64,000 nucleotides of DNA from a virus. Taxonomy: Duplodnaviria; Heunggongvirae; Uroviricota; Caudoviricetes. A program made the translations under genes and the position numbers. The number at the start of each line of letters is the position of its first letter. Position 1 is the first letter of the stretch. Below, piece by piece: positions 3,985-64,000 of this stretch. The stretch is from positions 1 through 64,000 of the IMG/VR virus record IMGVR_UViG_3300005836_000011, one strand, 5' to 3'. The notes beneath the pieces were generated by a model that was not told the DNA's origin, ran no database searches, and saw nothing but the letters and a program-made list of their open reading frames with translations.

Positions 3985-4026
3985 CAAACGCCCCCGTCCT
4001 GCGCTGCGGGGGCGTTTGTGCTTTCT
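3985..4026 (+). terminator. rho-independent terminator-like hairpin
   Basis: caaacgcccccg / cgggggcgtttg stem with a 10-nt loop, followed by tgctttct. Confidence 0.5.
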
Positions 4027-4700: not shown

Positions 4701-5624
4701 GTGAGTTATCTCGTTCTTACATTCATTCTGTTCGTGATCTGCGCGATCACGTTCGGTATAGGGAGGTCGTTCGCGAGTACACCGGACGACGCGTATGAAG
4801 CAAAAAGCAAGCAGTCCATAGGAAAGATCACCGAGTGGTCGGCGATCATCATCTTCGTATTGCTTTTTGTCCTCTGGACAGGAGCCAAGACATTCCATGC
4901 CGTCCCTGCTGGCCACGTCGGCGTCGTCTATCAGTTCGGGAACATCGTCGGCCAAACTGACGCCGGCCTCGTCACCACGGCACCGTGGCAGGACTTGAAG
5001 CAGGCAAACGTGCAGGTGCAGCGTGAGTCATTCGATCAGCTCGACTCGTTCTCGAAGGAGACGCAGGACGTATTCATCAAGGCGACCATCAACTATGAAG
5101 TTAGCCCCAAGGACATCCAGACGCTCTACCGCACAGTCGGACCAAACTACTTCGACAAGCTGGTCCCCACACGCGTCAACCAGTTGTTCAAGGACGAGAC
5201 GGTGAAGTTTGCGGCCGTCAACATCGCACCTAACCGAGAGGTCATCCGCAAAGAAGTGCTGGCTCGGCTAAAGGCCGAACTTGCCAGGTATTCGATCCAG
5301 GTCGACGATCTCCTGATCGACAACATCAAGTTCTCCAAGGAGTTCACGAAGTCGATCGAGGATAAGCAGATCGCTACCCAGGAAGCCAAGGCTGCAGAGA
5401 ACCGCGTCAAGACCGCACAGGCCCAGGCACAGCAGGCAATCGCCGCGGCCAAGGGGCAGGCGAAGGCGCAGCAGCTGCAGCGCTCGACACTCACCCCGCT
5501 GCTTGTTCAGAAGTATGCGATCGACAAGCTCAACCCGAACGTGCAGGTTCTCGTGGTTCCCTCGAACGGAAGCATCCTGCTGCCATCGTCGCTACTGAAC
5601 AGCCTGCAGACAGGGAGGAAGTAA
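4701..5624 (+). CDS. SPFH/band-7 (stomatin/HflC-like) membrane protein
   Basis: N-terminal TM helix, an SPFH-like core (HAVPAGHVGVVYQFGNIVGQTDAGLVTTAPWQDLKQANVQVQRESF...) and a C-terminal Ala/Gln-rich coiled coil. Confidence 0.75.
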   Translation: MSYLVLTFILFVICAITFGIGRSFASTPDDAYEAKSKQSIGKITEWSAIIIFVLLFVLWTGAKTFHAVPAGHVGVVYQFGNIVGQTDAGLVTTAPWQDLKQANVQVQRESFDQLDSFSKETQDVFIKATINYEVSPKDIQTLYRTVGPNYFDKLVPTRVNQLFKDETVKFAAVNIAPNREVIRKEVLARLKAELARYSIQVDDLLIDNIKFSKEFTKSIEDKQIATQEAKAAENRVKTAQAQAQQAIAAAKGQAKAQQLQRSTLTPLLVQKYAIDKLNPNVQVLVVPSNGSILLPSSLLNSLQTGRK

Positions 5625-9296: not shown

Positions 9297-9796
9297 CCGC
9301 CCCGGCTAAGCACACGGTTCAACTTCTCGCGGAGTTGGAGAAGGTAGGAGCTGTCATTGACAACGGCCTCTTCCTTCCTGCCGACCTTGAGTACGACAGC
9401 TATGAGAGCGTAGGGGCAATGCTCGGCGCGCTGCATCAGGCAACAGGATTCCTGATCGGCGATTACCTCCTATATGGAGAACACACCTACGGAGAACGCT
9501 ACGCACAAGCCGCGCTGCTCTTGGGACTGTCTCCACAAACATGCGCGAACTACCAGTCGATCGCTAAACGCGTTCCTCCTGGTCGTCGCAAGGACGGGGT
9601 GAGCTTCTCTGTTCATGGCGAGGTTGCATCCTTGCCACCCGAGCTTCAGGAACACTGGCTGACCGTCGCTGCAAACGAGGGTCTCACAAAGCAAGAGATA
9701 CGAGACCGATTGCGTCCACCCAAGGAACTATCAGCAGCCGATAAAACCGTAACCTGCCCCCGCTGTGGATGTTCATGGTGGCCTGATGCAAAATAG
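9221..9796 (+). CDS. hypothetical protein, possibly DNA-binding
   Basis: GTG 9221 with RBS aggagga at -6. HTH-like segment LTKQEIRDRL and a C-terminal CPRCGC. Confidence 0.5.
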   Translation: MGSTTQELQAYAREGGDREEAQDRVTAPAKHTVQLLAELEKVGAVIDNGLFLPADLEYDSYESVGAMLGALHQATGFLIGDYLLYGEHTYGERYAQAALLLGLSPQTCANYQSIAKRVPPGRRKDGVSFSVHGEVASLPPELQEHWLTVAANEGLTKQEIRDRLRPPKELSAADKTVTCPRCGCSWWPDAK

Positions 9797-10211
9797 TGAA
9801 GCTCTATGTGTCTGCGGTTGTGGTCAACCCGTAAGCCGTGCTCTTCAGAACTTTCCCGAACGCGGCTATAAGAAAGGCGACTACTTTCGTTATGCCAGGG
9901 GTCATCGCGGCAAGCACCCTGCATGGAACAAGGGACATTGGAGCGAAGTAGTAAATGAGTTCTCAGCGAGAGTTCGGGCGCGTGGAATCAAGGGACCTGG
10001 TCTATGTGAACTAGTCCGCATTGGCGGATGCTCCCCAAGGCTCCACGTTCATCACATAGACGGAAATCCATTTAACAACGATCCAGCCAATCTTATGAGA
10101 CTTTGCATGTCCCATCATGCGCTTGTGGAGAGAGATCGCATTGACTTAGACAACCCAGTCATGCCACCATTCACTATCTCCAGTGGGAAACGGAGATACA
10201 GATATGGCTAA
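9786..10211 (+). CDS. HNH endonuclease
   Basis: CVCGCG Zn cluster and an HNH core LHVHHIDGNPFNNDPANLMRLCMSHHALV. Confidence 0.65.
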   Translation: MQNSEALCVCGCGQPVSRALQNFPERGYKKGDYFRYARGHRGKHPAWNKGHWSEVVNEFSARVRARGIKGPGLCELVRIGGCSPRLHVHHIDGNPFNNDPANLMRLCMSHHALVERDRIDLDNPVMPPFTISSGKRRYRYG

Positions 10212-10752: not shown

Positions 10753-12354
10753 ATGCGCGTAGGCAGTCTCTTCTCCGGTTGCATGGGCTTCGATCTGGGT
10801 CTTGAAGCGGCCGGCTTTGAGATCGCATGGGCTTGTGAATCCGATGCGGCCTGCCGTCGAGTAATCGCACGACATCGTCCTGACCTTCCCGTATACGAAG
10901 ATGTACGTATGTTCTCCGAAGGCGAGAGCATTAAAGAGGTTCCCTATGTTGATGTAATCGCCGGAGGATTTCCATGCCAGGATCTATCGCAAGCAGGCTC
11001 AGGGGCAGGTCTCGCAGGTGAGCGCTCGGGACTCTGGTTTTCCATGCGAGATGCCATTCGCGCGCTTCAACCCGGATACGTCCTCATCGAAAACGTCCCC
11101 GGACTTGCAACCAAGATGGGTTCCCGCCCAGGAGAATCTGCTCTCGGAACAGTCATCGCTGGTCTGGCCGAAGCAGGGTATGTGGGATCTTGGATTCGCC
11201 TACGAGCTTCCGAAGTCGGCGCCCCCCACAAACGAGAGCGAATCTTCCTTCTTGCAGCTAGAGCCGACATTGACTCCGCGCGAACTGACTCCAGAGACAG
11301 CTTGGGCAGCCGGTCTGTTCGAGGGCGAAGGGTACTTCTGCAATCCAGAACGAAAAAAGCCACGACCTCGGATCATGGCTGGTCTGATCAGTACGGACGA
11401 AGACACGGTGCGCAAGTTCCACAAGATCGTCAGGATGGGGACAGTGGGGGGGCCATTCCCACAACAAGGGATAGGGAAAAAGCCTTATTGGAGATGGAAC
11501 GTATTTGGCCCTGTTGCTGTATCGGACCTGCTGGAGATGCTTTGGCTTGGCCTCGGGGAGCGAAGGCGTGCTACTGCTTCGGTGGTACTCGACCTTGTGA
11601 TTGCTGGCCGTCAGCAACATCCGCTCAAGGGAGACGTTCTCTTGCTGCCAACACCGAATGCATACGAATCGACACCCGCGCAGGATTATGTGGACGAGGT
11701 ACGCAAGAACCTAGACGATCCGCACAAACGCCTGTATCTACCGGGCCGGAAATGGCACGCACAGAGGACGCTATCGAGGATAGCCCCGCTTCTGCCGACA
11801 CCGGGAGCAAACGACTCCACGGGTCCGGAGAACGAGACGAGGAAGAAGCGACAGAAGAAAGGCACGGGGGGACCGGCTCTACGCGATCTGACGCATCTCC
11901 TTCCGACACCGACAGCGGGAGACGCGAACTCGTCGGGGTCGAGGAAGCTTCCGAGTTCGAAAGCGCACGCGGGGACGTCACTGACGGATGCGATCGTGAG
12001 AGAAAAGCTGCTTCCGACACCGACAGTGAACGACGCGAGAAACACCGGAGGCCCATCACAGCACACGAGAAACTCACTTCCGCTGGTCGAGATAGCGAGG
12101 GACGTGAGTGGGGCGTCTATGGACCAGCAATCAAGCGATGGACAGATGCCTTCGGGAGAGAACCCCCAAGACCAACTGATGATCGAGGGAGATTGAACCC
12201 CGCCTTTACGGAATGGATGATGGGATTTCCCGACGGATGGACGGAGGGCGAGAGCAGAACGCAAAGGCTTAAAATGCTTGGTAATGCTGTCGTCGTACAA
12301 GTGGGTGAGGTGGTTGGTCATATGCTCATGGAGGGAGCGATGCGTGGAGAGTGA
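10753..12354 (+). CDS. DNA (cytosine-5)-methyltransferase, Dcm-like, interrupted by a frame-shifted LAGLIDADG-like domain (possible pseudogene or recoded gene)
   Basis: Frame +1 carries motif I (LFSGCMGFDLGL), IV (GFPCQDLSQAG), ENV (LIENVPGL) and VIII (HKRERIFLLAAR), ending at about 11262. Frame +2 (11267-12100) carries a LAGLIDADG-like block and four LLPTP-x-A-x-D TRD repeats. Frame +1 resumes at about 12100 with motifs IX/X (WGVYGPAIKRW...RLNPAFTEWMMGFPDGW, GNAVV). Confidence 0.7.
   Translation: MRVGSLFSGCMGFDLGLEAAGFEIAWACESDAACRRVIARHRPDLPVYEDVRMFSEGESIKEVPYVDVIAGGFPCQDLSQAGSGAGLAGERSGLWFSMRDAIRALQPGYVLIENVPGLATKMGSRPGESALGTVIAGLAEAGYVGSWIRLRASEVGAPHKRERIFLLAARADIDSARTDSRDSLGSRSVRGRRVLLQSRTKKATTSDHGWSDQYGRRHGAQVPQDRQDGDSGGAIPTTRDREKALLEMERIWPCCCIGPAGDALAWPRGAKACYCFGGTRPCDCWPSATSAQGRRSLAANTECIRIDTRAGLCGRGTQEPRRSAQTPVSTGPEMARTEDAIEDSPASADTGSKRLHGSGERDEEEATEERHGGTGSTRSDASPSDTDSGRRELVGVEEASEFESARGDVTDGCDRERKAASDTDSERREKHRRPITAHEKLTSAGRDSEGREWGVYGPAIKRWTDAFGREPPRPTDDRGRLNPAFTEWMMGFPDGWTEGESRTQRLKMLGNAVVVQVGEVVGHMLMEGAMRGE
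11252..11600 (+). mobile_element. LAGLIDADG homing-endonuclease-like domain embedded in the methyltransferase gene, in frame +2
   Basis: TPRELTPETAWAAGLFEGEGYF...DEDTVRKFHKIVRMGTV...YWRWNVFGPVAVSDLLEMLWLGLGERRR is colinear with the free-standing genes at 17226 and 36670 (revcomp). It begins 5 nt after methyltransferase motif VIII, with no ATG (possible TTG at 11270). Confidence 0.6.
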
Positions 12355-13421: not shown

Positions 13422-13696
13422 TAGTTCGTGTGCGTTTCATCGGCGGTCCGTTCGATGGACTAGCGCAAGGTTGGAATGTTCAACGCGCGCTTCCCGAGAG
13501 GCTAAGAATGTCTTACCGACTTGCCGATGCTCGGGGCGGCGTACGTATGGAAGTTACCGATCCTTCCGCCTGCGGCGCTCTGCTCTCCCATGAGCGTGAG
13601 TCGGATGAAGTCGTCTACCGCCAGCGTGAACTTGGAGAGTATTACTTCGATCCTATTTCCGATGACTTTGAGGTTATGGCAATTGGCTCAGCCTGA
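13418..13696 (+). CDS. hypothetical protein
   Basis: ORF track; GTGA overlap with the previous gene. Confidence 0.45.
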   Translation: MIVRVRFIGGPFDGLAQGWNVQRALPERLRMSYRLADARGGVRMEVTDPSACGALLSHERESDEVVYRQRELGEYYFDPISDDFEVMAIGSA

Positions 13697-14024
13697 TCCC
13701 AAACCACCACGCGTAGTTCGAAACAGGGAACTTCTGCGCCTCCTACACGGTCGCTGGAGAGAATGCGCTCTCTGCCACACAACCGCCAATCTGTCCCTCC
13801 ATCACATCCACAAACACCCCAGAGATGATGTGAAGGGAAATCTGGTAATGCTCTGCGGGGACGGCGTCCAGGGCTGTCACGGACTCATAGAGAGCAACGA
13901 CGCGCCCACTGTGAGGCGCCTGATGCAATACATCATGGATTCGCGCCCCGACACTATGGCATACCTCATGGTGAGATTCGGTCCGGTATCTGCAACGGAC
14001 TGGATCAGGCGCCAAATGTCCTGA
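13686..14024 (+). CDS. HNH endonuclease
   Basis: C-terminal part of ORF 13521-14024: CALCHTTANLSLHHIHKHPRDDVKGNLVMLCGDGVQGCHGLIE. The N-terminal 55 aa of the listed ORF are low-complexity. TTG near 13686 is the likely start. Confidence 0.6.
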   Translation, partial: AQPDPKPPRVVRNRELLRLLHGRWRECALCHTTANLSLHHIHKHPRDDVKGNLVMLCGDGVQGCHGLIESNDAPTVRRLMQYIMDSRPDTMAYLMVRFGPVSATDWIRRQMS

Positions 14025-17225: not shown

Positions 17226-17615
17226 ATGATACATCAGACCGATAGAGAATTACTAGCATGGGCAGCTGGTCTGTTTGAAGGCGAGGGGCATATTAAGCAT
17301 CGCCGTTATAATAGAAGCAGCCGACCGGGTGAAACTGCAATGCAGCGTGGCCTGACGCTCACAATGGCTGACGAGGATGTCGTGCGACGCTTCCATGAAA
17401 TTGTTGGTGTTGGGAGCGTTAATTTCTCTAAACGTGCGAGGCCACACTGGAGTGACCAATGGAGATGGGACTGTACAAGCTGGCCAGATGTAAGAACTCT
17501 TCTCCATCAATTTCTACCCTACCTTGGTAAGCGAAGAACTCTTAAGGCTCAGGAATTGTTGGCTGACCCAGCTCGCACATATACTAAGCGCAAAGTTACA
17601 ACGCGCGAAAGATGA
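17226..17615 (+). CDS. LAGLIDADG-family homing endonuclease (single-motif type), free-standing
   Basis: RELLAWAAGLFEGEGHI matches a LAGLIDADG motif. Plus-strand gene sits between minus-strand lysis genes. Confidence 0.7.
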   Translation: MIHQTDRELLAWAAGLFEGEGHIKHRRYNRSSRPGETAMQRGLTLTMADEDVVRRFHEIVGVGSVNFSKRARPHWSDQWRWDCTSWPDVRTLLHQFLPYLGKRRTLKAQELLADPARTYTKRKVTTRER

Positions 17616-39953: not shown

Positions 39954-40385
39954 TCATCCCGTGAAACTCACCACATTGGAGTCGGGGCGCGTGTAGTCGC
40001 CCGCCCCGCTCGGCTGGTAGACCCATGCTGAGCAGGCGACCCCAGGTCGCGCGAGGGCGGTGAGGAACGTCGGCACCGTCTGCCCGAAGTAGGGTGAGAG
40101 TGGGTCGGTGACGATCAAGCTGGTGACCCAGCCCGTGTCGCCCACGGTGGAGAATCCCTCGCAGCGCACGACGACCTGCGCGAGCCACCAGATATTCTGA
40201 CGCCGGTTTGACCGCTGCACCTCGACGGTCACGGTGTCGTAGGGCGAATCCGTCGCCACGCTTGCCACACGAACGGTGAACCCGTTGTCGTTGCCCTTCG
40301 CGGTCGCGCCCGCACTCAGGACGAGCCCCGCTACGAGCACGGCGGCCAGCGACGCAATCCTGCTCATCACTGCCTCCTTAGACAT
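39954..40385 (-). CDS. secreted protein (signal peptide)
   Basis: [23 protein letters not shown] looks like a signal peptide. Confidence 0.45.
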
Positions 40386-43300
40386 TCTTCCTCGTATAGT
40401 TGATCATCACGCCAATCAGCATCGCATCTGCCGCAAGCGTGTCAGAGCCGTCGGCAGGTACGCGCTTCACACGAATGAACACCGTTTCGCTGGCTGCGGG
40501 AGTTCCGCCAACCGTGATCGCGGGAGTGGATGCGCTTTGGAACTGGAGCAACGTCGTACCCGCGGTCGGTGTATCCGCGATCTGCTGCGCTGTGCCATAG
40601 GCGGAGGCCGTATCTGTGCCATCGCCCAGAGCGACCGCCTCCAACGCCCAGACAACCCCGCTCGTACTCGTGCCCACGCGCGTCCAGTCAAACTGCGCGG
40701 TGATCGTTCCACCATCCCAGTCCGACGGCATCCGCAGAGTTGCACAAGCGAACTCCTGTGTCGTCTGGTCGAAGTCGAGCGTGTAGTAGTTGTGGCTGCT
40801 CGTTCCAGCGACATTCTTGTTCTGAGCAGCGCCGTTGGTCGTCGCTGGCACCATGCCCGAAGCGGTGAGATAGAGCTGCCCCGCAGGTGCCGGGCCACGC
40901 TGCCCATCAAGGCCGTGGATGCCCTCTGGCCCGGTCGCACCTGTCGCGCCGGCTCCTGTCGCTCCCGAGACTCCCGTTGCCCCGGTAGCACCCGAGATGC
41001 CGGTCGCGCCTGTTGCGCCAGAGATACCCGTCGGCCCGGTTGCTCCCCTGTCGCCAGACGGCCCCTCCAGACCATCGAGTCCCTGTGCTCCTGTTGCACC
41101 ACTGATTCCGGTTGCGCCAGTTGCGCCCGATATGCCGGTCGGCCCAGTTGCGCCCGAGACACCCGTGGCCCCCGTCGCCCCACTGACGCCGGTGGCGCCC
41201 GTTGCTCCTGAGACACCCCTATCTCCCGACGCACCCTCCAGGCCGTCGAGGCCCTGCGGCCCAGTGGCTCCGCTGATGCCAGTAGCTCCAGTTGCGCCAG
41301 ATACGCCGGTAGCCCCGGTAGCACCAGAAACGCCCGTGGCGCCAGTGGCCCCCGACACCCCGGTGGCGCCCGTGGCGCCAGAGATGCCGGTTGCACCTGT
41401 CGCTCCGCTGACGCCCGTTGCCCCAGTCGTTCCCCGATCTCCCGAGCGACCTTCGAGACCGTCGAGACCCTGTGGGCCGGTTGCTCCACTGATTCCCGTA
41501 GCGCCGGTAGCTCCGCTCACTCCGGTAGCGCCAGTAGCGCCTGAAACTCCGGTTGCCCCAGTAGCGCCCGAAACACCGGTTGCACCAGTGGCGCCCGAGA
41601 CTCCGGTGGCTCCAGTAGCCCCGGAGACACCAGTGGCGCCAGTGGCACCCGACACCCCAGTTGCTCCCGTCGCGCCAGACACACCGGTCGTACCAGGCGA
41701 TCCATCGAGTCCGTCAATCCCCTGCGGGCCCGTCGCTCCCGAGACGCCCGTGGCACCAGTCGCACCGGATACACCAGTTGCTCCCGTCGCGCCAGACACA
41801 CCTGTGGCTCCAGTCGCGCCAGAGACCCCGGTCGCGCCCGTTGCGCCAGAAACGCCTGTCGCTCCAGTCGCGCCAGAAACGCCCGTCGCCCCCGTCACAC
41901 CCTTGTCGCCGGAAGCTCCCTCGAGACCATCGAGACCCTGGGGACCCGTCGCACCGGATACGCCTGTCGCGCCAGTAGCGCCGGAGACCCCAGTAGCGCC
42001 GGTTGCTCCACTGACTCCGGTAGCACCAGTGGCACCGGATATGCCTGTTGCACCCGTTGCTCCAGAGACGCCCGTCGCTCCAGTAGCACCGGATACACCA
42101 GTGGCCCCCGTAGCGCCCGAGATGCCTGTGGCACCTGTGACTCCCCTATCTCCTGATGCTCCCTCCAGTCCATCCAGCCCCTGCGATCCAGTAGCACCAC
42201 TTATTCCTGTGGCACCAGTTGCCCCGGATATTCCGGTTGCGCCAGTGGCTCCGCTGATGCCTGTTGCGCCTGTCGCGCCAGAGATACCCGTTGCTCCGGT
42301 GGCTCCTGAAATACCTGTGGCACCCGTAGCTCCACTAACTCCTGTGGCACCCGTTGCTCCTGAAACACCCGTAGCTCCCGTAGCCCCTGTGACGCCCTTG
42401 TCTCCCGATGGCCCCTCCAGCCCATCGAGGCCCTGCGCGCCGGTTGCGCCGGATATGCCAGTCGCGCCCGTTGCTCCTGATATTCCCGTGGCACCAGTTG
42501 CACCAGATACCCCGGTTGCCCCCGTAGCTCCGGAGACACCCGTGGCACCAGTAGCACCGGAAACACCGGTTGCCCCAGTGGCACCACTGATTCCTGTGGC
42601 ACCAGTGGCCCCTGAAACTCCAGTCGCTCCTGTGACTCCCTTGTCTCCAGAGGCCCCTTCTAGGCCATCGAGACCCTGTGGGCCGGTAGCGCCCGACACA
42701 CCAGTTGCACCCGTAGCCCCACTGATTCCCGTGGCTCCTGTCGCCCCGGAAACTCCGGTAGCGCCTGTGGCTCCCGAAACCCCGGTTGCGCCAGTTGCTC
42801 CGGATACCCCCGTAGCACCAGTTGCGCCCGATACTCCGGTCGGGCCTGCCGCTCCGGATATCCCAGCACTTCCATCAAGCCCATCCAACCCTTGCGGCCC
42901 AGTAGCCCCCGACACTCCAGTAGATCCGGTCGCTCCCGAAACCCCGGTTGCGCCTGTTGCCCCAGAAACTCCGGTTGCTCCGGTAGCGCCGGATACTCCA
43001 GTCGCACCCGTTGCTCCTGAAACTCCCGTAGCGCCTGTTGCACCCGATACGCCAGTTGCTCCAGTTGCTCCGCTGACTCCTGTAGCCCCCGTTGCTCCGC
43101 TGGCACCAGTTTGGCCCTGAGAACCATCAAGCCCAGGGATGGCCTCTGGACCAGTCGCACCAGAAATCCCTGTTGCTCCGGTAGCTCCAGAGATACCTGT
43201 TGCGCCGGTAGCACCGCTAACTCCGGTTGCTCCAGTTGCACCCGAAACTCCGGTTGCTCCAGTGGCGCCGCTTATACCTGTCGCTCCGGTAGCCCCACTT

Positions 43301-45180
43301 ACTCCGGTTGCCCCCGTGACCCCCTTATCACCCGAAGCGCCTTCCAGGCCATCGAGTCCTTGCGGGCCGGTTGCTCCACTAATCCCAGTCGCTCCAGTCG
43401 CACCTGATACACCCGTAGCTCCCGTAGCGCCCGAAACACCAGTAGCTCCAGTTGCACCGGATACGCCAGTCGCGCCAGTAGCGCCGCTGACACCTGTTGC
43501 TCCTGTAGCGCCGGAGACCCCGGTAGCGCCCGTGGCTCCTGAAATGCCTGTCGCGCCAGTAGCGCCTGAGATACCTGTCGGCCCCTGCCCTCCATCAATG
43601 CCATCGAGGCCAGCCGGCCCAGTTGCCCCACTGATTCCGGTTGCTCCGGTGTTTCCTCCCCCAGGACCAGTCTGGCCCGTGGGACCCGTGGCACCCGTGG
43701 CGCCTGACCCGGTGGCACCGATGCCTCCGTCAACGCCATCCAGTCCGGCGGGGCCAGTCGCTCCACTAACGCCCGTGGAGCCTGTCGCTCCCGAAACCCC
43801 CGTCGCCCCGGTGGCTCCGGAAATCCCAGTAGCTCCAGTTACACCCTTGTCGCCCGAAGGTCCATCGAGGCCATCGAGTCCTTGAGGACCAGTGGCTCCC
43901 GAAACCCCGGTAGACCCGGTAGCCCCAGAAATCCCTGTGGCTCCAGTGGCTCCGGAAATGCCCGTGGCGCCTGTCGCGCCCGACACTCCGGTCGCACCTG
44001 TTGCACCCGAGACACCTGTGGCACCTGTAGCTCCGGAGACTCCTGATCCGGTCGCGCCCGTCCCTCCAACAGCGCCATCAATTCCGTCAGTCCCCTGTGG
44101 GCCGGTCGCACCGCTTGATCCTGTGGCGCCAGATACACCAGTCGCTCCTGTTGCTCCGGAAACTCCCGTAGCGCCCGTCGCTCCGCTGACACCAGTTGCC
44201 CCAGCACCCGTAGCGCCAGTCGCTCCCGAGCTCCCGGTAGCACCCGAGACACCTGTCGCGCCTGTCGCGCCCGTGACGCCAGCGCCTGTCGGCCCAGTCG
44301 GGCCGTCTGCGCCAGATGCGCCATCGGATCCTGTGGCACCCGTATTGCCCTGCGCTCCCGCCGAGATCGGCGTCAGCACCGACGACGTGTTCACCGAACC
44401 CATGTAGTACGTCGTGAGGTCGGTAGAGCCGCCGCCCGAGTCCTTGACCGCGTAGAGCTTGACTACAAGCAGGTCGTCTACGAGAAGCGCTATTGGAGCC
44501 GCTTGCGAGTACGTCCAGATTGCAGACTGAACCAGCGTGTTATCGATCTCTCCCGAGTCCGACGTAAAGAGCAGCGTCTCGCCACCGCCAGCCGCGCGCT
44601 TGTAGACCTCGGCGCGCAGGTAGACAACGCCGATTGCGCTGTCCACGTCGGCGCTAATCGAGAAGCGCCAGAGGCCGACGGGAATCTCCTCGATGGCCGG
44701 TACGCCAACGATGGTCGAGAACTCCTCGATGAGAACCGGGCTCGTTCCGGTCGTGACGCCGGCGATGATCGTGTCCTCGGCATCTGCCGATGGAAACTTC
44801 CGCGCCTGTCCATACCCGCCTATCGTCGGGTGAGCCGTCGTCCATAGCCAGAATCTCGCCCCAGCCTCACCTGCTGGCCCAGTCGGACCGGTTGCGCCCG
44901 TCGCGCCAGTGACTCCGTCCGTTCCGATCGTGCCGGAAGGGCCAGTAGCGCCAGTCGCACCCGAAGGGCCACCAGCAGGGCCCGTGGCGCCCGTTGCTCC
45001 AGTCTGTCCTGCGCCCGATCCTCCGGCAGGAGGATCAACGTACTCGTGAATCCAGCCACCAGGGAAGCCAGGCTCGCCCAGTACCGCCGGGCGGGTCTGG
45101 AGCATCTTCTGGTCGCCGATGGCCGAGTCATCGACGTCAAGAAGCCTGCGAAGGAAACGTATTACGCGAACAGCGGCCAT
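40378..45180 (-). CDS. giant collagen-like triple-helix repeat protein (1600 aa), putative virion fibre
   Basis: About 1150 residues of uninterrupted Gly-X-Y ([13 protein letters not shown]..., punctuated by [19 protein letters not shown]). N-terminal 250-aa and C-terminal 230-aa non-collagen domains. Confidence 0.85.
40880..44350. repeat. nested tandem repeats (9/27-nt and about 300-nt units) encoding the Gly-X-Y region
   Basis: Repeats are visible at both nucleotide and protein level. The antisense strand carries spurious Pro/Ala/Val ORFs. Confidence 0.8.
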
Positions 45181-57422: not shown

Positions 57423-59019
57423 GGGCCGGTGCTGCCGACTTTGCTCTAAGCCAGTTCATAGCTTGCGACCATGCATCCACATCATCGTCATACATGGCAA
57501 ATGGGAAGGTGGCCATCGAATGTACGAACGCATTGATGTCCGCTGGCGTGCGTGCCTCGTCCATTGCAGGCTGCCAGGGAGGCCCATATCCAGGAATCCA
57601 ACAGTTGCCAGATTCGAGAACATCGGAGGCCGCTTCGGCTCGAGAGATCTTGTCACCGAGTGGCCCAGGAACAACCTTCTGCACACCGATGATCTCACGC
57701 TTCAGATCAACGATCAGCTCAATACCGTATCCAGCATTCTCGATCAAGACCGTTGAGTGGCAGTAGGGCCAGGTCTTGCGCGTCCACTTCGCCATCTCCA
57801 CGATACGGCGCTTGCACTTGCCGTAGTTCATCTTCCCCAGGTCGATGTCGAGGAGATAGCGATCTGCGCCGCGCACACCCCAAGCCTGAACGGCAACGTT
57901 GTCTGAGGATTCTTTGTCTTTCAATGGTGTATCGGCAGAGATAACGATTCGAGAAAACTTCGGAAGTTTTGTTGGATCACCGCGCCAGCGAGGGTCATAG
58001 AATCTCCACCAGTCGCGCTTGAGCAGGTTGCCTTCTCGAGGTGCGGGTCGCTGCTGCAACTGGCCAGCTGCACGGAAGGTTCCAAGCTCGGCCTCTAGGT
58101 TCCTAGACGCCTTTTCGTCTCGACGTGCTGGCCAGATGAGTTCTCCCTCAGCGCGTGGATCTCCGTACTCAAGAACTGGAGCGAGGTAAGGCTTTACCGC
58201 TGGATGTATGCGTTCTTTTCTCCAGGCATAAGGGTGACCTTCCTCGAAGCGTTCGGGAAGGCAGAGGATCGTCCAATCGTCTCCGCCTAGATCGAGCATA
58301 TGTGCAGCGAGATCATTCTCGTGAAGTCTCTGCATAACGAGAACGCGCGCGTGCTTGAAGTTCATATCAGCGTTGTCGACGTAGCGAGAAGAAGCGGTCG
58401 AGTCGTACCACTCGTTCGCTCGCGTCAACAGCGTACGCAGATCCATCACGGGGTCGCTCGAGTTATCAGCAGCCCGCGCCGGCACAGGATCGTCGATGAC
58501 GATTCGGTGGCCATGTTCTCCCGTTCCGGTTGACTGAGGGGTTGTTGCGAAGCGAGAGCCACCTTGTTTGTTGTTCCAGTAGGTTGCAGCCTCGAGGTTA
58601 AGTTCAGCTCCCTCGGGCCAGCGTTCCTTGTACCAAGGACTCGATACCACGGTTTGCGCGTCAAGTGAGAAGCGCTGCACGAGATGGATCTCATAGGAAG
58701 CTGTGAAGTAGCGAAGCCACGGCCTCATCGTCCATTCCCATGGATGCCAGTACACGGTGACCATTCCCGTCTTCATCGTTCCTGGTGGGATCCAGATCTG
58801 AAGACGATGAATCTCCCCACGTGTCACAGCCTCCAAGTGAGCGGCGATGGCTTCGAGGTGCCAGTTAGAGATGAACGGCTCGTGCTTTTTGACAGTGAGC
58901 CAGGCTTCCTTCACAAATGCCGAGAATGACTCGCGCAGTCGCTCGCGATCTTCCTGGGCCTTGGCCTGCTCTTGCCCCACCTTGAGGGCACTAAGAAGAT
59001 CAGCGTGGGTGATTGACAC
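57394..59019 (-). CDS. terminase large subunit
   Basis: 541 aa, first large gene of the late block. ATPase-like N-terminus and nuclease-like C-terminus (D/E-rich motifs). Confidence 0.7.
   Translation of the reverse strand: MSITHADLLSALKVGQEQAKAQEDRERLRESFSAFVKEAWLTVKKHEPFISNWHLEAIAAHLEAVTRGEIHRLQIWIPPGTMKTGMVTVYWHPWEWTMRPWLRYFTASYEIHLVQRFSLDAQTVVSSPWYKERWPEGAELNLEAATYWNNKQGGSRFATTPQSTGTGEHGHRIVIDDPVPARAADNSSDPVMDLRTLLTRANEWYDSTASSRYVDNADMNFKHARVLVMQRLHENDLAAHMLDLGGDDWTILCLPERFEEGHPYAWRKERIHPAVKPYLAPVLEYGDPRAEGELIWPARRDEKASRNLEAELGTFRAAGQLQQRPAPREGNLLKRDWWRFYDPRWRGDPTKLPKFSRIVISADTPLKDKESSDNVAVQAWGVRGADRYLLDIDLGKMNYGKCKRRIVEMAKWTRKTWPYCHSTVLIENAGYGIELIVDLKREIIGVQKVVPGPLGDKISRAEAASDVLESGNCWIPGYGPPWQPAMDEARTPADINAFVHSMATFPFAMYDDDVDAWSQAMNWLRAKSAAPARARSLVSRR
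58095..58106 (+). promoter_or_regulatory. CTAGGTTCCTAG 12-mer copy inside the TerL coding sequence
   Basis: Exact copy; encodes SRNLE in TerL. Confidence 0.45.
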
Positions 59020-61013: not shown

Positions 61014-61198
61014 CGCTCTCCCTCCAACGCAGCACGAACGTGGGTTTCAAGGTAGTGGGCGCGGTAGGAGTCATCCCGCCAGAATCGCCGTCCGCATTGA
61101 CCACATCGCCTCCACCACCACACATACAGCGGCAGCGGCACGGCGGGCGTCCATCCGCGCTCGGGGTGCTTTGGGTCGAACTGCATGGGGTGATTCAC
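61010..61198 (-). CDS. C2H2-like Zn-finger protein
   Basis: CGQCGRRFWRDDSYRAHYLETH. Confidence 0.4.
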   Translation of the reverse strand: MNHPMQFDPKHPERGWTPAVPLPLYVWWWRRCGQCGRRFWRDDSYRAHYLETHVRAALEGER

Positions 61199-61599
61199 TG
61201 CCGCTCTCCCTCCAACTCAGTCTCAAGGGCGGCGAGGGCGCGGAAGGGAGTCAGATCAGGCCACTCTTCATCCGCGAGCATCGCAGCGAGCCGCGCGCAG
61301 TTCGGCTTGTGTTGACCGCAGTCGTCGTGGAAGGTGTTGAGGCAATCCGCGCAGTAGTGACTATTGCCGACGAAACCGAGAGCGCGAATCACAGCAACAC
61401 CAGATCCTTCTCGCTCCGCCGCCTCGGTGAGCGCGATCAGGGCGGGGAGGGGCACCGAGGCAAGTAGCGAATCTTGCGGCGTCCAGTCTCCTTCGCCAAT
61501 GAGTTCCAGCGAAGCACGAACCGCCGCGTCCAGCGCCTTCAAGGATTCCGAGGCGGTCACTGAACGCTCCACCAGCCAGCCATGCCGCCGATCAGCCAT
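61195..61599 (-). CDS. hypothetical protein
   Basis: C-terminal 134 aa of ORF 61195-61761, starting at MADRRHGW. The upstream part of the listed ORF is Cys/Arg junk overlapping two small TM genes. Confidence 0.4.
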   Translation of the reverse strand: MADRRHGWLVERSVTASESLKALDAAVRASLELIGEGDWTPQDSLLASVPLPALIALTEAAEREGSGVAVIRALGFVGNSHYCADCLNTFHDDCGQHKPNCARLAAMLADEEWPDLTPFRALAALETELEGERQ

Positions 61600-61688
61600 A
61601 CCGCCAGCGTGATCATCAGGAAGCACGTCGAGAAGGCGATGACGCCCATCGTCACCATGAATACGAAGAATGCGCGATCGTCGTTCAT
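61556..61688 (-). CDS. small TM protein (43 aa)
   Basis: MNDDRAFFVFMVTMGVIAFSTCFLMITLAVWLIGGMAGWWSVQ. Its ATG overlaps the TGA of the upstream small gene. Confidence 0.4.
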
Positions 61689-61780
61689 GAGAGCCACCAA
61701 GCAAGCAACGCGATGCCAATAGCCAACAGCACCATAGAGCTAAGAAACACTGGCAACACAACCCACGGTGGCATCATGAT
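61685..61780 (-). CDS. small TM protein (about 30 aa)
   Basis: MMPPWVVLPVFLSSMVLLAIGIALLAWWLS; RBS ggagaaatc. Confidence 0.35.
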   Translation of the reverse strand: MMMPPWVVLPVFLSSMVLLAIGIALLAWWLS

Positions 61781-61947
61781 TTCTCCTTCAGCGCATCTTC
61801 CATAGCGGCCATCGCATTTCCGAGATCGTTGGAGATCGCTTCTGGCTCGGATGACTTCACCGCATCTATGAGTTCCTGGGCGAGACGCTCTAGTTTCAGT
61901 ACGCGCATACGCGCTCTACGTAGACGTAAATAGTCAAAGGTTTTCAC
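61775..61947 (-). CDS. small hypothetical protein (GTG start)
   Basis: VKTFDYLRLRRARMRVLKLERLAQELIDAVKSSEPEAISNDLGNAMAAMEDALKEKS. Stop overlaps the next ATG. Confidence 0.3.
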
Positions 61948-62408
61948 TTAGGGGCGGTCAGTCGCTTAAACAGCGGAACCGGCTCCATGCCCATCTGCTC
62001 GGCATAAAAATTGGCAACTCCCCTAAGTGCGCGATGAAGATAGCGACCAGAAGGCTTCCCATCTTCTCGATACCACTTGGTCGAGGTGGCGTAGCCGTTG
62101 GTGAATCCATACCAGGGCTGCCAGCCGCGACGGTCATAGAGACTTCGCGCTCTCGACAGATTCTCGGGAACTCCATACAGCTTGCGCTCGGCCGCAGTTC
62201 CCACTTCCTCAAAGGGAATGTTGATCTGAAACAACCCGACATCCCGCGACGGCTTATCACCGACGTTGTCGTGATAGGCAAGTGGATAGCCATTCGACTC
62301 AGAGAGACACACCGCCACTGCCTTCACAAGTTCAAAGTCTTTCCAGCCAGCGGCATGACACAATCGTGCCAACTCCCGTGGCTCCAGAGCTTTCCCAATG
62401 AGCGGCAT
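61944..62408 (-). CDS. lytic transglycosylase (Slt/lysozyme-like) domain protein
   Basis: ESNGYPLAYHDN...DVGLFQIN resembles the E...S...GLMQ signature of Slt-family transglycosylases. Confidence 0.5.
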   Translation of the reverse strand: MPLIGKALEPRELARLCHAAGWKDFELVKAVAVCLSESNGYPLAYHDNVGDKPSRDVGLFQINIPFEEVGTAAERKLYGVPENLSRARSLYDRRGWQPWYGFTNGYATSTKWYREDGKPSGRYLHRALRGVANFYAEQMGMEPVPLFKRLTAPK

Positions 62409-62680
62409 CACACCTTCTTCCAATCGTCAGGCAGAGGAACATCCTTCCGCGCTTCAGGTGGAAGCTGTAAAGCAAGCCAGCGCGCTAGAAGCTCAGCGGC
62501 CCCTTGCACATCCCGTGACACATCAGCCAGCTTCTTCAGTTCATTAGAGTAGTCGGGTGGCTGTGGGATCTTATGAAAGCTGCGATAAGAATAAACACCC
62601 AGCGCAACCTGAATGTTGTTAAGCGCCTGAATCAGCTCCTCGTGGCGTTTCTGACTGCCCGTAAAAATTCTGATTTTCAA
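62408..62680 (-). CDS. hypothetical protein
   Basis: ORF track. Confidence 0.4.
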   Translation of the reverse strand: MKIRIFTGSQKRHEELIQALNNIQVALGVYSYRSFHKIPQPPDYSNELKKLADVSRDVQGAAELLARWLALQLPPEARKDVPLPDDWKKV

Positions 62681-63006
62681 AACCGCCCTTTCTTCTTCGC
62701 CGGCACCGGTTTGAAGTCTGGCTTGAACTCCTTCACATACGACGCGGGGGAACTCTCGGAGCGGGACCGGCCAGTCATGGGTGTGTCATCCCGCATTTCG
62801 GTAGATTCCCCGGTGGGGTTGTCTGCCTTATGACCGTCGCCTGACACATAAGGCGGCGTGGTCGCATCCCGCTCCGACAATGCCTCCGACCTCTCGCGAA
62901 ACAGTCGATACACCATCTCCCTCTGAAGGGATCGCCTCGACCCGTTCGCCCACTTCTGTAACAACTCCAACTCCTCTTCAGTGAGTCTTAGATTGACTTT
63001 AGGCAT
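62677..63006 (-). CDS. ribbon-helix-helix (CopG/Arc-like) DNA-binding protein
   Basis: N-terminal MPKVNLRLTEEELELLQKWANGSRRSLQREMVYRL looks like a beta-strand plus two-helix RHH. First gene downstream of the repeat array. Confidence 0.5.
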   Translation of the reverse strand: MPKVNLRLTEEELELLQKWANGSRRSLQREMVYRLFRERSEALSERDATTPPYVSGDGHKADNPTGESTEMRDDTPMTGRSRSESSPASYVKEFKPDFKPVPAKKKGRF

Positions 63007-63200
63007 GGGGCCAGCCTATCACATTCTGGGGCCAGAATGGCCCTATAGGGCCAAGTATCAGATGTCACTGTAGTTGCCAGGAAGTGGTGCACTAGTACCC
63101 CAGTATAGCTGAATTTGTTATATACACAGGGCGGGACCTCGCGCCTGCCGGCGGCGGGTGGGGGTCGGCAATGGGCAGGCCGGTTCCCGCGCCCGAGCTC

Positions 63201-63480
63201 TCGCCAAGACTGGCAACGGGCGATGCCAAGACGGGCAACCTAAACCGTTGCCACTACTGGCAGCGCGTTGCTAGTGGCGACAACTAGTGGCCGGGACTGG
63301 CAACGCGTTGGCCGTTTCGCGAACGGGCAACGTCTAGGATCCTAGACCCTGCGACGTTGTCAGAATCGGACACGCTCCGCGCGGCGAATCCCGCCGGGAC
63401 GGGGAGAGAGAATCCCGCCGGGAAGTAGCGGCGTTGCCAAGCTCGGCAGCTAGATCGGCGTTGGCAATTAGGCTTACAGC
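63201..63480. repeat. iteron-like array of GGCAAC/GTTGCC hexamers, including direct repeat GCCAAGACNGGCAAC
   Basis: At least eight copies in 280 bp of non-coding DNA (63212, 63234, 63247, 63266v, 63301, 63327, 63433, 63469v), in both orientations, plus the palindrome-like ggcaacgcgttggcc. Confidence 0.6.
63334..63345 (+). promoter_or_regulatory. CTAGGATCCTAG, perfect-palindrome variant of the 12-mer
   Basis: Inside the repeat-rich divergent control region. Confidence 0.45.
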
Positions 63481-63725
63481 GCGAAGGGGAGTAGCATTAG
63501 GGGTGCAGTAGGAAGTAGGCGGCAGAACCGGAGAATACGGGGAGCGCGCCGGGGAAGCGGGGGAGATCCGTTTCCGCTCGCGAGAGAAAGACTCGCCGCG
63601 TGACACCATCCGATTGAAAGCTCGCCAGGACGGCAGCGACCGACCTACCCGCGAGCTTGAGAGTGTGGTCTTGGCTAATGCTCGAGATCCGCCGAGAAAC
63701 GGCGGAGAACGGAGAACCCAAGACC

Positions 63726-64000
63726 ATGAGTACCACCGCAGACAAAGCACAGGCACCAGTCAGCAACGCTAAGGCGATTCGTTCCGAGTGCTCGCGCGAG
63801 ATTGGCGCGGCGCTTAAGGATGAGGCCAGAGCGGCGCTTAGGATCGGCGTTGCGCTCAACCTCGCAAGCTCGACGTTCACCGTCGAGGAGAGGGAAGCGT
63901 GGCAGGCATGGGCAACGAGTGTCACCCGCAAGTCTTGGAAAACGTGCCAGTCGTATATGGCAGTCGCCAAGACCCACGGCAAGCTCACCCGGCAGGCCGA
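63726..64000 (+). CDS. hypothetical protein, 5' fragment continuing past the window end
   Basis: ATG 63726 after 'ggagaac'. Frame open to nt 64000. Divergent from the RHH gene. Confidence 0.35.
   Translation, partial: MSTTADKAQAPVSNAKAIRSECSREIGAALKDEARAALRIGVALNLASSTFTVEEREAWQAWATSVTRKSWKTCQSYMAVAKTHGKLTRQA

Follow-up and report, generated by a model that had tools for sequence, protein, structure and literature searches.

Which protein reads the cluster of GGCAAC/GTTGCC repeats that lies between two divergently oriented genes near the end of a 64,000-nt phage sequence (positions 1 to 64,000 of IMG/VR record IMGVR_UViG_3300005836_000011, hereafter the window), and what does this cluster do there? 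The non-coding interval concerned, 63007-63725, is 719 bp long and separates a minus-strand open reading frame (ORF) at 62677-63006, encoding a putative ribbon-helix-helix (RHH) protein, from a plus-strand gene with its ATG at 63726, whose product is P0124. The reading that we favour, though tentatively, is that the interval is a divergent control region with lineage-specific dyad operators for a dimeric helix-turn-helix (HTH) protein, probably the neighbouring P0124, which resembles the DNA-binding domain of KorB, acting on divergent promoters. The region would then be a mosaic of separate protein-binding modules. These would comprise four TRGGGCCA repeats by the RHH start codon as the operator of the Arc-like RHH protein, a clade-conserved promoter-like sequence (GGCGCGAGG-N11-GTATATAAC), the GGCAAC array with four TGGCAACG/CGTTGCCA dyads and extra half-sites, one copy of a clade-wide 16-bp palindrome, and the leader of the plus-strand gene.

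Exact GGCAAC/GTTGCC hexamers were found seven times in the interval, at 63073 (minus), 63212 (plus), 63234 (plus), 63247 (minus), 63299 (plus), 63326 (plus) and 63433 (minus), while 0.55 were expected from the rest of the window (Poisson P = 2e-6). In 2000 dinucleotide shuffles the count never exceeded three. An earlier note on this DNA had counted at least eight; the array is real, but the eighth copy (63911) lies inside the plus-strand gene. The motif is described better by the octamer TGGCAACG, with four exact copies and 11 at no more than one mismatch, compared with 0.75 expected (P = 5e-10). Nowhere in the window is this octamer denser than in the 250 bp from 63211 on, which hold ten copies. 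The copies alternate in orientation, half of all being inverted, and the array contains the following elements.

63201-63331, no strand: GGCAAC/TGGCAACG array, a cassette of about 130 bp that appears specific to this phage
63211-63228: dyad TGGCAACGggCGATGCCA
63233-63253: dyad GGGCAACCtaaacCGTTGCCA
63258-63273: dyad TGGCAGCGCGTTGCTA
63298-63313: dyad TGGCAACGCGTTGGCC
63275 and 63325: extra octamer half-sites

The four dyads (16-21 bp) lie 410-515 bp upstream of the plus-strand gene and are the only ones in the 64 kb with two mismatches or fewer. Their centres are 23.5, 22.5 and 40 bp apart. Five octamer cores on the same strand are spaced 22, 25, 40 and 27 bp, and the array contains two direct units of 22 bp (63203-63246) and two of 40 bp (63247-63326). 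The direct repeat and the quasi-palindrome described in the earlier note were both recovered, the former as GCCAAGACNGGCAAC at 63203-63217 and 63225-63239 and the latter as GGCAACGCGTTGGCC at 63299-63313. The GC content of the array is 60-64%, that of the adjoining segment 80%. The array folds far better than shuffled sequences (z -4.0 as DNA, -4.6 and -3.7 as RNA of the two strands), and such strong folding on both strands indicates dyad symmetry at the DNA level rather than a strand-specific RNA. An RNA reading of the array was rejected on this ground, and also because Rfam gave no match for the interval at the gathering threshold or at E up to 1 and no tRNA was found in it. The earlier view of the array as a set of repeats resembling binding sites is supported.

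Neither the octamer nor the 12-mer CTAGGWWCCTAG, described below, has been reported in the searchable literature, and an exact 37-mer from the array was absent from IMG/VR, GTDB genomes and JGI metagenomes. The consensus palindrome TGGCAACGCGTTGCCA gave five isolated single copies in IMG/VR, with no site cluster and no relative of P0124, which were taken as chance matches. Two weak dyads of the TGGCAACG type, with three mismatches each, were seen 48 bp apart at 61703-61718 and 61751-61773, at the junction of the genes 61195-61761 and 61774-61947; they may be a secondary site or due to chance.

The window was taken from a source contig of 83.5 kb, of which about 19.5 kb lie outside it. It represents a novel, uncultivated tailed phage, as a whole genome or a large part of one. 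TerL was recognised by a match to PHROG 38 (E = 7e-74), with a TerS-like gene and an SLT lysozyme close by; the closest TerL among GenBank phages is 35% identical, and a 68%-identical TerL was found on a contig of a Fimbriimonadales metagenome-assembled genome. The minus strand carries everything from 63006 down to about 18.5 kb, a block of about 44 kb in which the RHH gene comes first, followed by the lysozyme and, further on, the terminase. Positions 1-18.5 kb are mostly coded on the plus strand. The switch in strand polarity therefore falls at 63007-63725, supporting the divergent control region suggested in the earlier note, and the non-coding stretch of about 700 bp described there was confirmed by a codon-usage scan trained on the long genes of the window, which gave no coding frame in the interval. 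The minus and plus blocks are presumably late and early, respectively, as judged by gene content.

Relatives of the RHH gene and of the plus-strand gene were not found in the IMG/VR, metagenome contigs and GTDB genomes searched, and blastn of 62000-64000 against GenBank phages and PLSDB plasmids gave no close copies. Nor were identical proteins on record for the window genes that were looked up. A single relative of the RHH protein (P0002, 49% identity) was located on a contig of 2.5 kb, L001. TerL relatives gave three contigs spanning the orthologous divergent region, namely L038 and L039 (TerL 76% identical) and L042 (68%), so that five phages including the window could be compared. The IMG/VR TerL relatives L002-L034 (at most 62% identity) were too distant, with no RHH homologue, 12-mer motif or alignable intergenic region, and the loci around P0034 (L044-L047) displayed a different organisation with HTH_3 repressors; neither set was used.

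All five phages share the same order towards the RHH gene: one to three copies of the 12-mer palindrome, a GC-rich stretch containing TGCCCAYYG and GGCGCGAGG, a TATA-like box, CCTGGGGTACTAGTGCACCA, short repeats and the RHH gene. After the TATA-like box, the orthologous regions continue with CCTGGGGTAC..GCACCA and then the RHH-specific repeats. The identity between the window and L001 is 84% in the leader, 61% in the RHH gene and 42% upstream of the TATA-like box. In this alignment, homologous DNA was present on both sides of 63201-63331 and none inside. No comparable cluster of TGGCAACG-like sites was detected in the intergenic regions of L001, L038, L039 and L042, nor in that of any other locus compared, and the 259 bp that are available from L001 upstream of its RHH gene contain not one such site. 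Since L001 matches only the DNA on either side of this segment, the array appears to be a separate cassette of about 130 bp, specific to this phage and inserted with the 12-mer palindrome on one side and the promoter-like module on the other.

The minus-strand neighbour and the DNA next to it are arranged as follows.

62677-63006, minus strand: Arc-like RHH gene, 109 aa, heading the block of about 44 kb
63006-63053, no strand: candidate RHH operator, TRGGGCCA four times, adjoining the RHH start codon
63006-63013: TGGGGCCA, overlapping the RHH start codon
63027-63034: second copy of TGGGGCCA
63038-63053: 16-bp palindrome, TGGCCCTA followed by TAGGGCCA
63054-63116, minus strand: RHH leader, between the TATA-like box and the RHH-proximal repeats

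The assignment of this gene to the Arc-type RHH proteins, already made in the earlier note, was sustained at marginal significance. Its score with Pfam Arc is 16.8 (E = 0.0064), below the gathering score of 20.4, and the match to the profile of the Arc repressor from PDB (E = 0.0033) covers Arc residues 7-42. The N-terminus MPKVNLR aligns with MPQFNLR of Arc, so that K3, N5 and R7 align with Q9, N11 and R13, the three beta-strand residues with which Arc contacts its operator bases. The AlphaFold2 (AF2) monomer model, of low confidence (mean predicted local distance difference test score, pLDDT, 61), is extended at residues 1-9 and has helices at 10-22 and 25-46, a predicted strand-helix-helix topology with an N-terminal DNA-reading strand. 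The tail of about 60 residues past residue 46 is predicted to be disordered. Its end (62677-62720) reads Y..EFKPDFKP....KKKGR and is kept in L001 (about 490-541); this conserved C-terminal motif could be a partner-docking peptide. The genes downstream encode an unknown protein of 90 aa, the SLT lysozyme and an unknown protein of 188 aa, and an NTPase domain was found in none of them.

Four of the six TRGGGCCA copies of the window fall within the 48 bp at 63006-63053, with same-orientation copies spaced 21 and 19 bp. Among the five phages the RHH genes fall into several sequence types, each with its own repeats beside the start codon. The window and L001 have in common the reading head MPKVNLRLTEEE and TGGCCCC/TAGGGCCA repeats (TGGCCCCA/TAGGGCCA) with the same 21- and 19-bp spacing. 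The corresponding repeats are three tandem copies of the 17-bp ACGAACTTCTTGTGTAT in L038, about eight GTATAGC heptads (counted by eye) in L039 and three copies of GGTATATA in L042. Because the proximal repeats covary with the RHH type in the five phages, the RHH protein is predicted to read TRGGGCCA at 63006-63053, and its operator is most likely this proximal set and not the GGCAAC array. From this site, downstream of the promoter, it would repress its own operon. The RHH leader ends, on the minus strand, with ...TGGGGTACTAGTGCACCACTTCCTGGCAACTACAGTGACATCTGATAC, of which the CCTGGGGTACTAGTGCACCA part is kept in L038 and L042, and it shows no excess RNA structure (z -0.13).

Upstream of this leader lies the second module.

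63117-63177, minus strand: clade-conserved promoter-like module, with invariant alignment columns
63177-63169, minus strand: TGCCCATTG
63145-63137, minus strand: GGCGCGAGG
63125-63117, minus strand: GTATATAAC, the window version of the TATA-like box GT(A/G)TATA

The module, with its core GGCGCGAGG-N11-GTATATAAC, occurs once in the 64-kb window, and so does its TATA-like box. The full string TGCCCAYYG...GGCGCGAGG-N11-GT(A/G)TATA followed by CCTGGGGTACTAGTGCACCA was seen once per genome and is kept in the five phages despite diverged surroundings, at about 95-150 in L001, 1625-1690 in L038, 1060-1125 in L039 and 2395-2450 in L042. The minus-strand block is presumably transcribed from this module, which lacks a -35 element of the sigma-70 kind and may be an activator- or phage-factor-dependent promoter. 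A terminator scan gave a single terminator-like match, at chance level, and TGGCAGCGCGTTGC was rejected by eye as a sigma-54 promoter, the GG-to-GC spacing being one base short.

On the other side of the array, further repeats precede the plus-strand gene.

63386-63467: further short repeats on the plus-gene side
63386-63399 and 63410-63423: GAATCCCGCCGGGA, two copies
63429-63440 and 63456-63467: CGGCGTTGCCAA and CGGCGTTGGCAA, TGGCAACG-type half-sites in the same orientation, 27 bp apart
63470-63725, plus strand: purine-rich stretch, presumed 5' leader of the plus-strand gene
63689-63705: hairpin CCGCCGAGAAACGGCGG in this leader
63703-63717: two GGAGAA Shine-Dalgarno-like repeats in this leader
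63726-64000, plus strand: first gene of the plus block, running past the window end; its full product is P0124

The folding of this leader is not significant (z -1.6). The full P0124, on the source contig, has 254 aa from ATG 63678 (the source gene call) and 238 aa from 63726. Since all homologues start at the equivalent of 63726 (MSTTADKAQ...), the start proposed in the earlier note is the better one. The structure model of P0124 is all-helical with residues 1-30 disordered, and it points to the HTH fold of the KorB/ParB/SopB-type DNA-binding domains. The N-terminal CTPase domain of ParB is absent, with no ParBc Pfam hit in 14 family members and no such domain in the P0124 model; a weak DUF3102 hit was obtained in two of the 14. 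The family is rare, with 12 representatives at E up to 0.001 among 1.84 billion proteins, and P0124 had no tblastn match in phages or plasmids. Positional orthologues in L038, L039 and L042 share about 22-25% identity over the full length, rising to about 30% in the first 91 residues. P0124-P0134 have the presumed recognition helix TRKSWKTCQSYMAVA in common; it differs in these orthologues, which are without the array. From the ParB-type fold, the adjacency and this difference in TRKSWKTCQSYMAVA, we infer that P0124 would be the best candidate binder of the TGGCAACG dyads.

Two observations concern the same gene. The product also exists as a 161-aa version (P0123), encoded on another JGI contig of 4.5 kb. 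It is identical to about residue 109 and then, just beyond the window end (from about 64010 on), fully divergent, suggesting a frameshift or the junction of a rearrangement in a variant strain. L039 (824-847 and 1010-1037) and L042 (2237-2260) share a palindrome of the type CCGG(N)CCGATCGG(N)CCGG, located 25-70 bp upstream of the gene for the KorB-like DNA-binding domain, which may be an operator/promoter counterpart.

Because it is probably not made up of RHH sites and has no origin features, the array would most likely be an ordinary lineage-specific cluster of regulator sites, that is, clustered operators for a dimeric HTH protein controlling one or both divergent promoters. Here, too, we infer which protein binds which site and what the regulatory outcome would be. 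Several points weigh against this reading. The pairing of P0124 with the array rests on proximity, fold and one unreplicated covariation contrast. The gap between half-sites differs among the dyads (0, 0, 2 and 5 bp), and a rigid dimer would fit such a set poorly. With a position 75-215 bp upstream of the TATA-like box, and some 400 bp ahead of the start of the plus-strand gene, the array overlaps no recognisable promoter, and a sigma-70 promoter scan of the region gave no sites. A repressor operator does not usually sit as far past the TATA-like box as the RHH-proximal repeats do (about 65-120 bp downstream), so that the RHH gene may really have its promoter elsewhere. A replication origin, too, would account for octamers of both orientations with a spacing of about 22 bp.

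Such an origin, in which the TGGCAACG octamers would be iterons for an initiator or helicase-primase encoded outside the window, is the main rival and a live one, though we think it rather unlikely. The type I octamers at ori and crr of phage P4, direct and inverted, are bound by the alpha protein, and the array, like iteron origins including these, has a short core in many copies and both orientations, some about 22 bp apart. Its 22- and 40-bp direct units, the spacing of its five same-strand cores, its strong hairpin or cruciform potential and its position at the turning point of strand polarity and cumulative GC skew would all suit an origin. The replication genes are not in the window and so are probably downstream of the plus-strand gene, and an origin can be lineage-specific, since origins covary with their initiators. 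However, there is no AT-rich unwinding element by the array, the lowest 50-bp GC fraction (0.42, at 63075-63124) being the promoter-like box, and no DnaA box, as TTATCCACA with one mismatch or none is absent from 63007-63725; DnaA boxes or host-initiator sites are frequent at iteron origins, though not obligatory. The flanking genes encode the RHH and the KorB-like proteins, not an initiator, and no Rep, primase or helicase was detected among the scanned ORFs of the window. Nor is the position conserved, the array being missing from the equivalent place in four relatives with conserved flanking modules. The GC-skew analysis that the earlier note had proposed as a check placed the cumulative minimum at the control region, but this minimum coincides with the strand switch and is explained equally well by the change in transcription direction. 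The origin reading of that note is not supported by these features of the window, which leaves out about 19.5 kb of the source contig.

The remaining alternatives are weaker. That the array has no dedicated function, as a repeat or hairpin cassette expanded in fast-evolving intergenic DNA, or is a pac- or cosB-like terminase site, is improbable. It is lineage-specific, lies in the least conserved intergenic part (that with 42% identity to L001) and has degenerate copies, and two related contigs, L001 and L035, end near the region. Yet the 11 copies keep the octamer core although their flanks have diverged, which points to selection on the core, and the distances between dyad centres correspond to roughly two and four turns of the helix; as for packaging, TerS is about 3.2 kb away and the contig ends lie off the array. 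A parS- or sopC-like centromere for the partition or spatial organisation of a plasmid-like prophage or replicating genome is still less probable. The modelled ParB/SopB/KorB-type fold of the plus-gene product would suit it, as would the 16-bp dyads in repeat units of about 40 bp, since sopC of plasmid F consists of 43-bp units each with a 16-bp inverted repeat. Against it are the missing CTPase domain, the orthologues in relatives without such an array, the genes directly downstream of the L038 and L042 orthologues, which at only 34-76 aa are too short for ParA, and the scanned window ORFs, among which no partition or integration gene, and specifically no integrase, protelomerase or plasmid Rep, was detected. 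It is very doubtful that the neighbouring RHH protein binds the GGCAAC array in the manner of omega, ParG or CopG, as an autoregulatory operator or a centromere. Binding to arrays of short repeats, whichever way these point, is established for RHH proteins such as omega and ParG, the RHH gene is adjacent, and one GTTGCC (63073) is inside the conserved RHH leader. But L001, whose RHH protein has the same reading N-terminus, lacks the array and reads GTTGTC at the leader copy, and in all five phages different, RHH-type-specific repeats adjoin the RHH start codon. These sequence comparisons speak against the pairing implied in the earlier note, and its ParG-type partition reading finds no ParA- or ParM-type partner after the RHH gene or elsewhere among the scanned ORFs.

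The operator reading can be set beside known systems. Arc and Mnt have different reading heads and different operator subsites. The RHH module of the window is similar to these repressor-operator pairs of the P22 immI region in its alignment with Arc (residues 7-42, as given above), in its short inverted and direct subsites beside its own gene, and in that relatives with a changed reading head have changed subsites. Unlike Arc, the protein scores below the Pfam gathering threshold and carries a disordered tail of 60 residues with a conserved C-terminal motif. Its gene comes first in a structural block of 44 kb and not in an immunity region, and the putative operator, which extends into the start codon, follows the one recognisable promoter-like box.

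The centres of the lambda OR sites are about 23-24 bp apart. The array likewise has several imperfect dyads about 23 bp from centre to centre between divergent units, but its half-site spacing varies and its dyads overlap no recognisable -10/-35 elements. Unlike in lambda, no CI- or Cro-like gene was identified, and there is no sign that the phage is temperate. In contrast to iteron origins, the array lacks an AT-rich element, a DnaA box, an adjacent initiator gene and positional conservation among relatives. The HTH domains of the ParB family read palindromes, for example the operator OB read by KorB in the global regulation of plasmid RK2 (PMC11790492). Compared with KorB, and with the HTH domains of ParB, SopB and VirB in general, P0124 is without the N-terminal CTPase/clamp domain, so that spreading as a sliding clamp is not expected; similarity at the sequence level is lacking, and no KorA, IncC or ParA partner was seen.

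The fourth module is not confined to the interval.

63332-63347: 16-bp perfect palindrome GTCTAGGATCCTAGAC, containing CTAGGATCCTAG at 63334-63345
491, 4025, 9056, 15713, 16824, 29417, 48743, 58095 and 63334: exact copies of the 12-mer CTAGGWWCCTAG
2359, 14873 and 20875: copies of CTAGGWWCCTAG with one mismatch

The single 12-mer copy mentioned in the earlier note is CTAGGATCCTAG, one of the nine exact copies of CTAGGWWCCTAG in the window, which together with the three one-mismatch copies compare with 0.3 expected. The palindrome GTCTAGGATCCTAGAC is flanked by inverted GCAACG and CGTTGTC half-sites (63325-63332 and 63355-63362). Copies of CTAGGWWCCTAG are often extended to GTCTAGG..CCTAGAC and are mostly at gene junctions. 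Several of them were seen by eye 2-25 nt upstream of a start codon or Shine-Dalgarno sequence (2359, 4025, 9056 and 29417) or across the stop codon of the upstream gene, and those at 4025 and 16824 seem to come after terminator-like hairpins. The motif is kept across the clade (L001, L035-L039, L042 and L043), with clusters between small genes on the plus-gene side in L042. In the four closest phages (TerL at least 80% identical), one copy is inside the TerL coding sequence, where it encodes SRNLE or SRILE. It lies 901-916 nt from the TerL start, at near-equivalent places in the window (58095-58106), L035 (about 3957), L037 (about 2344) and L043 (about 2770), and is absent from TerL of L038 and L039.

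In our analysis, this distribution resembles that of the OB sites of KorB or the stoperators of mycobacteriophages. The stoperators (PMC9283540) are likewise a short specific motif with about ten copies per genome, mostly at gene junctions and with copies in the main control region. They are asymmetric and oriented (PMC9283540), whereas CTAGGWWCCTAG is a perfect palindrome for which no repressor was identified here, and the copy at a conserved position inside TerL also departs from the comparison.

Outside the control region, the ORFs 2395-2967, 4701-5624, 9765-10211, 10753-12354, 13521-14024 and 17226-17615 of the plus-strand block comprise genes for a collagen-repeat protein, an SPFH/Band-7 protein, a C5 cytosine methylase and two HNH endonucleases, as well as a weak LAGLIDADG-like ORF, and no recognisable replication genes were seen in this block (1-18.5 kb). 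On the minus strand, a 1600-aa ORF at 40378-45180 lies in a segment of 65-67% GC with strong negative GC skew. It contains many short in-frame repeats, including many minus-strand GGCAAC, and resembles a repetitive structural or fibre protein.

A broader proposal, which we consider unlikely, is that the clade runs a plasmid-style global circuit, in which a CTPase-less ParB/KorB-type protein, dispersed palindromic operators and an interchangeable RHH module time both blocks, or that a P4-like octamer origin is placed within that switch. The operators of such a circuit may be the clade-wide CTAGGWWCCTAG sites, the phage-specific TGGCAACG dyads or both. If true, this lytic-looking phage would possess a regulatory network of the KorB or stoperator kind.

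Binding sites clustered in the control region of a phage are, taken alone, expected biology. Of no less interest than the array are two by-products of the analysis, namely the 16-bp palindrome dispersed throughout the clade and the interchangeable RHH-plus-operator module. A few related contigs suffice to assign repeats to their neighbouring regulators. If the assignments hold, the region would offer a compact, testable map of a regulatory switch in a phage lineage without a cultured relative, made up of an interchangeable RHH protein with its operator, a conserved promoter-like module and a CTPase-less ParB-fold protein beside phage-specific dyads.

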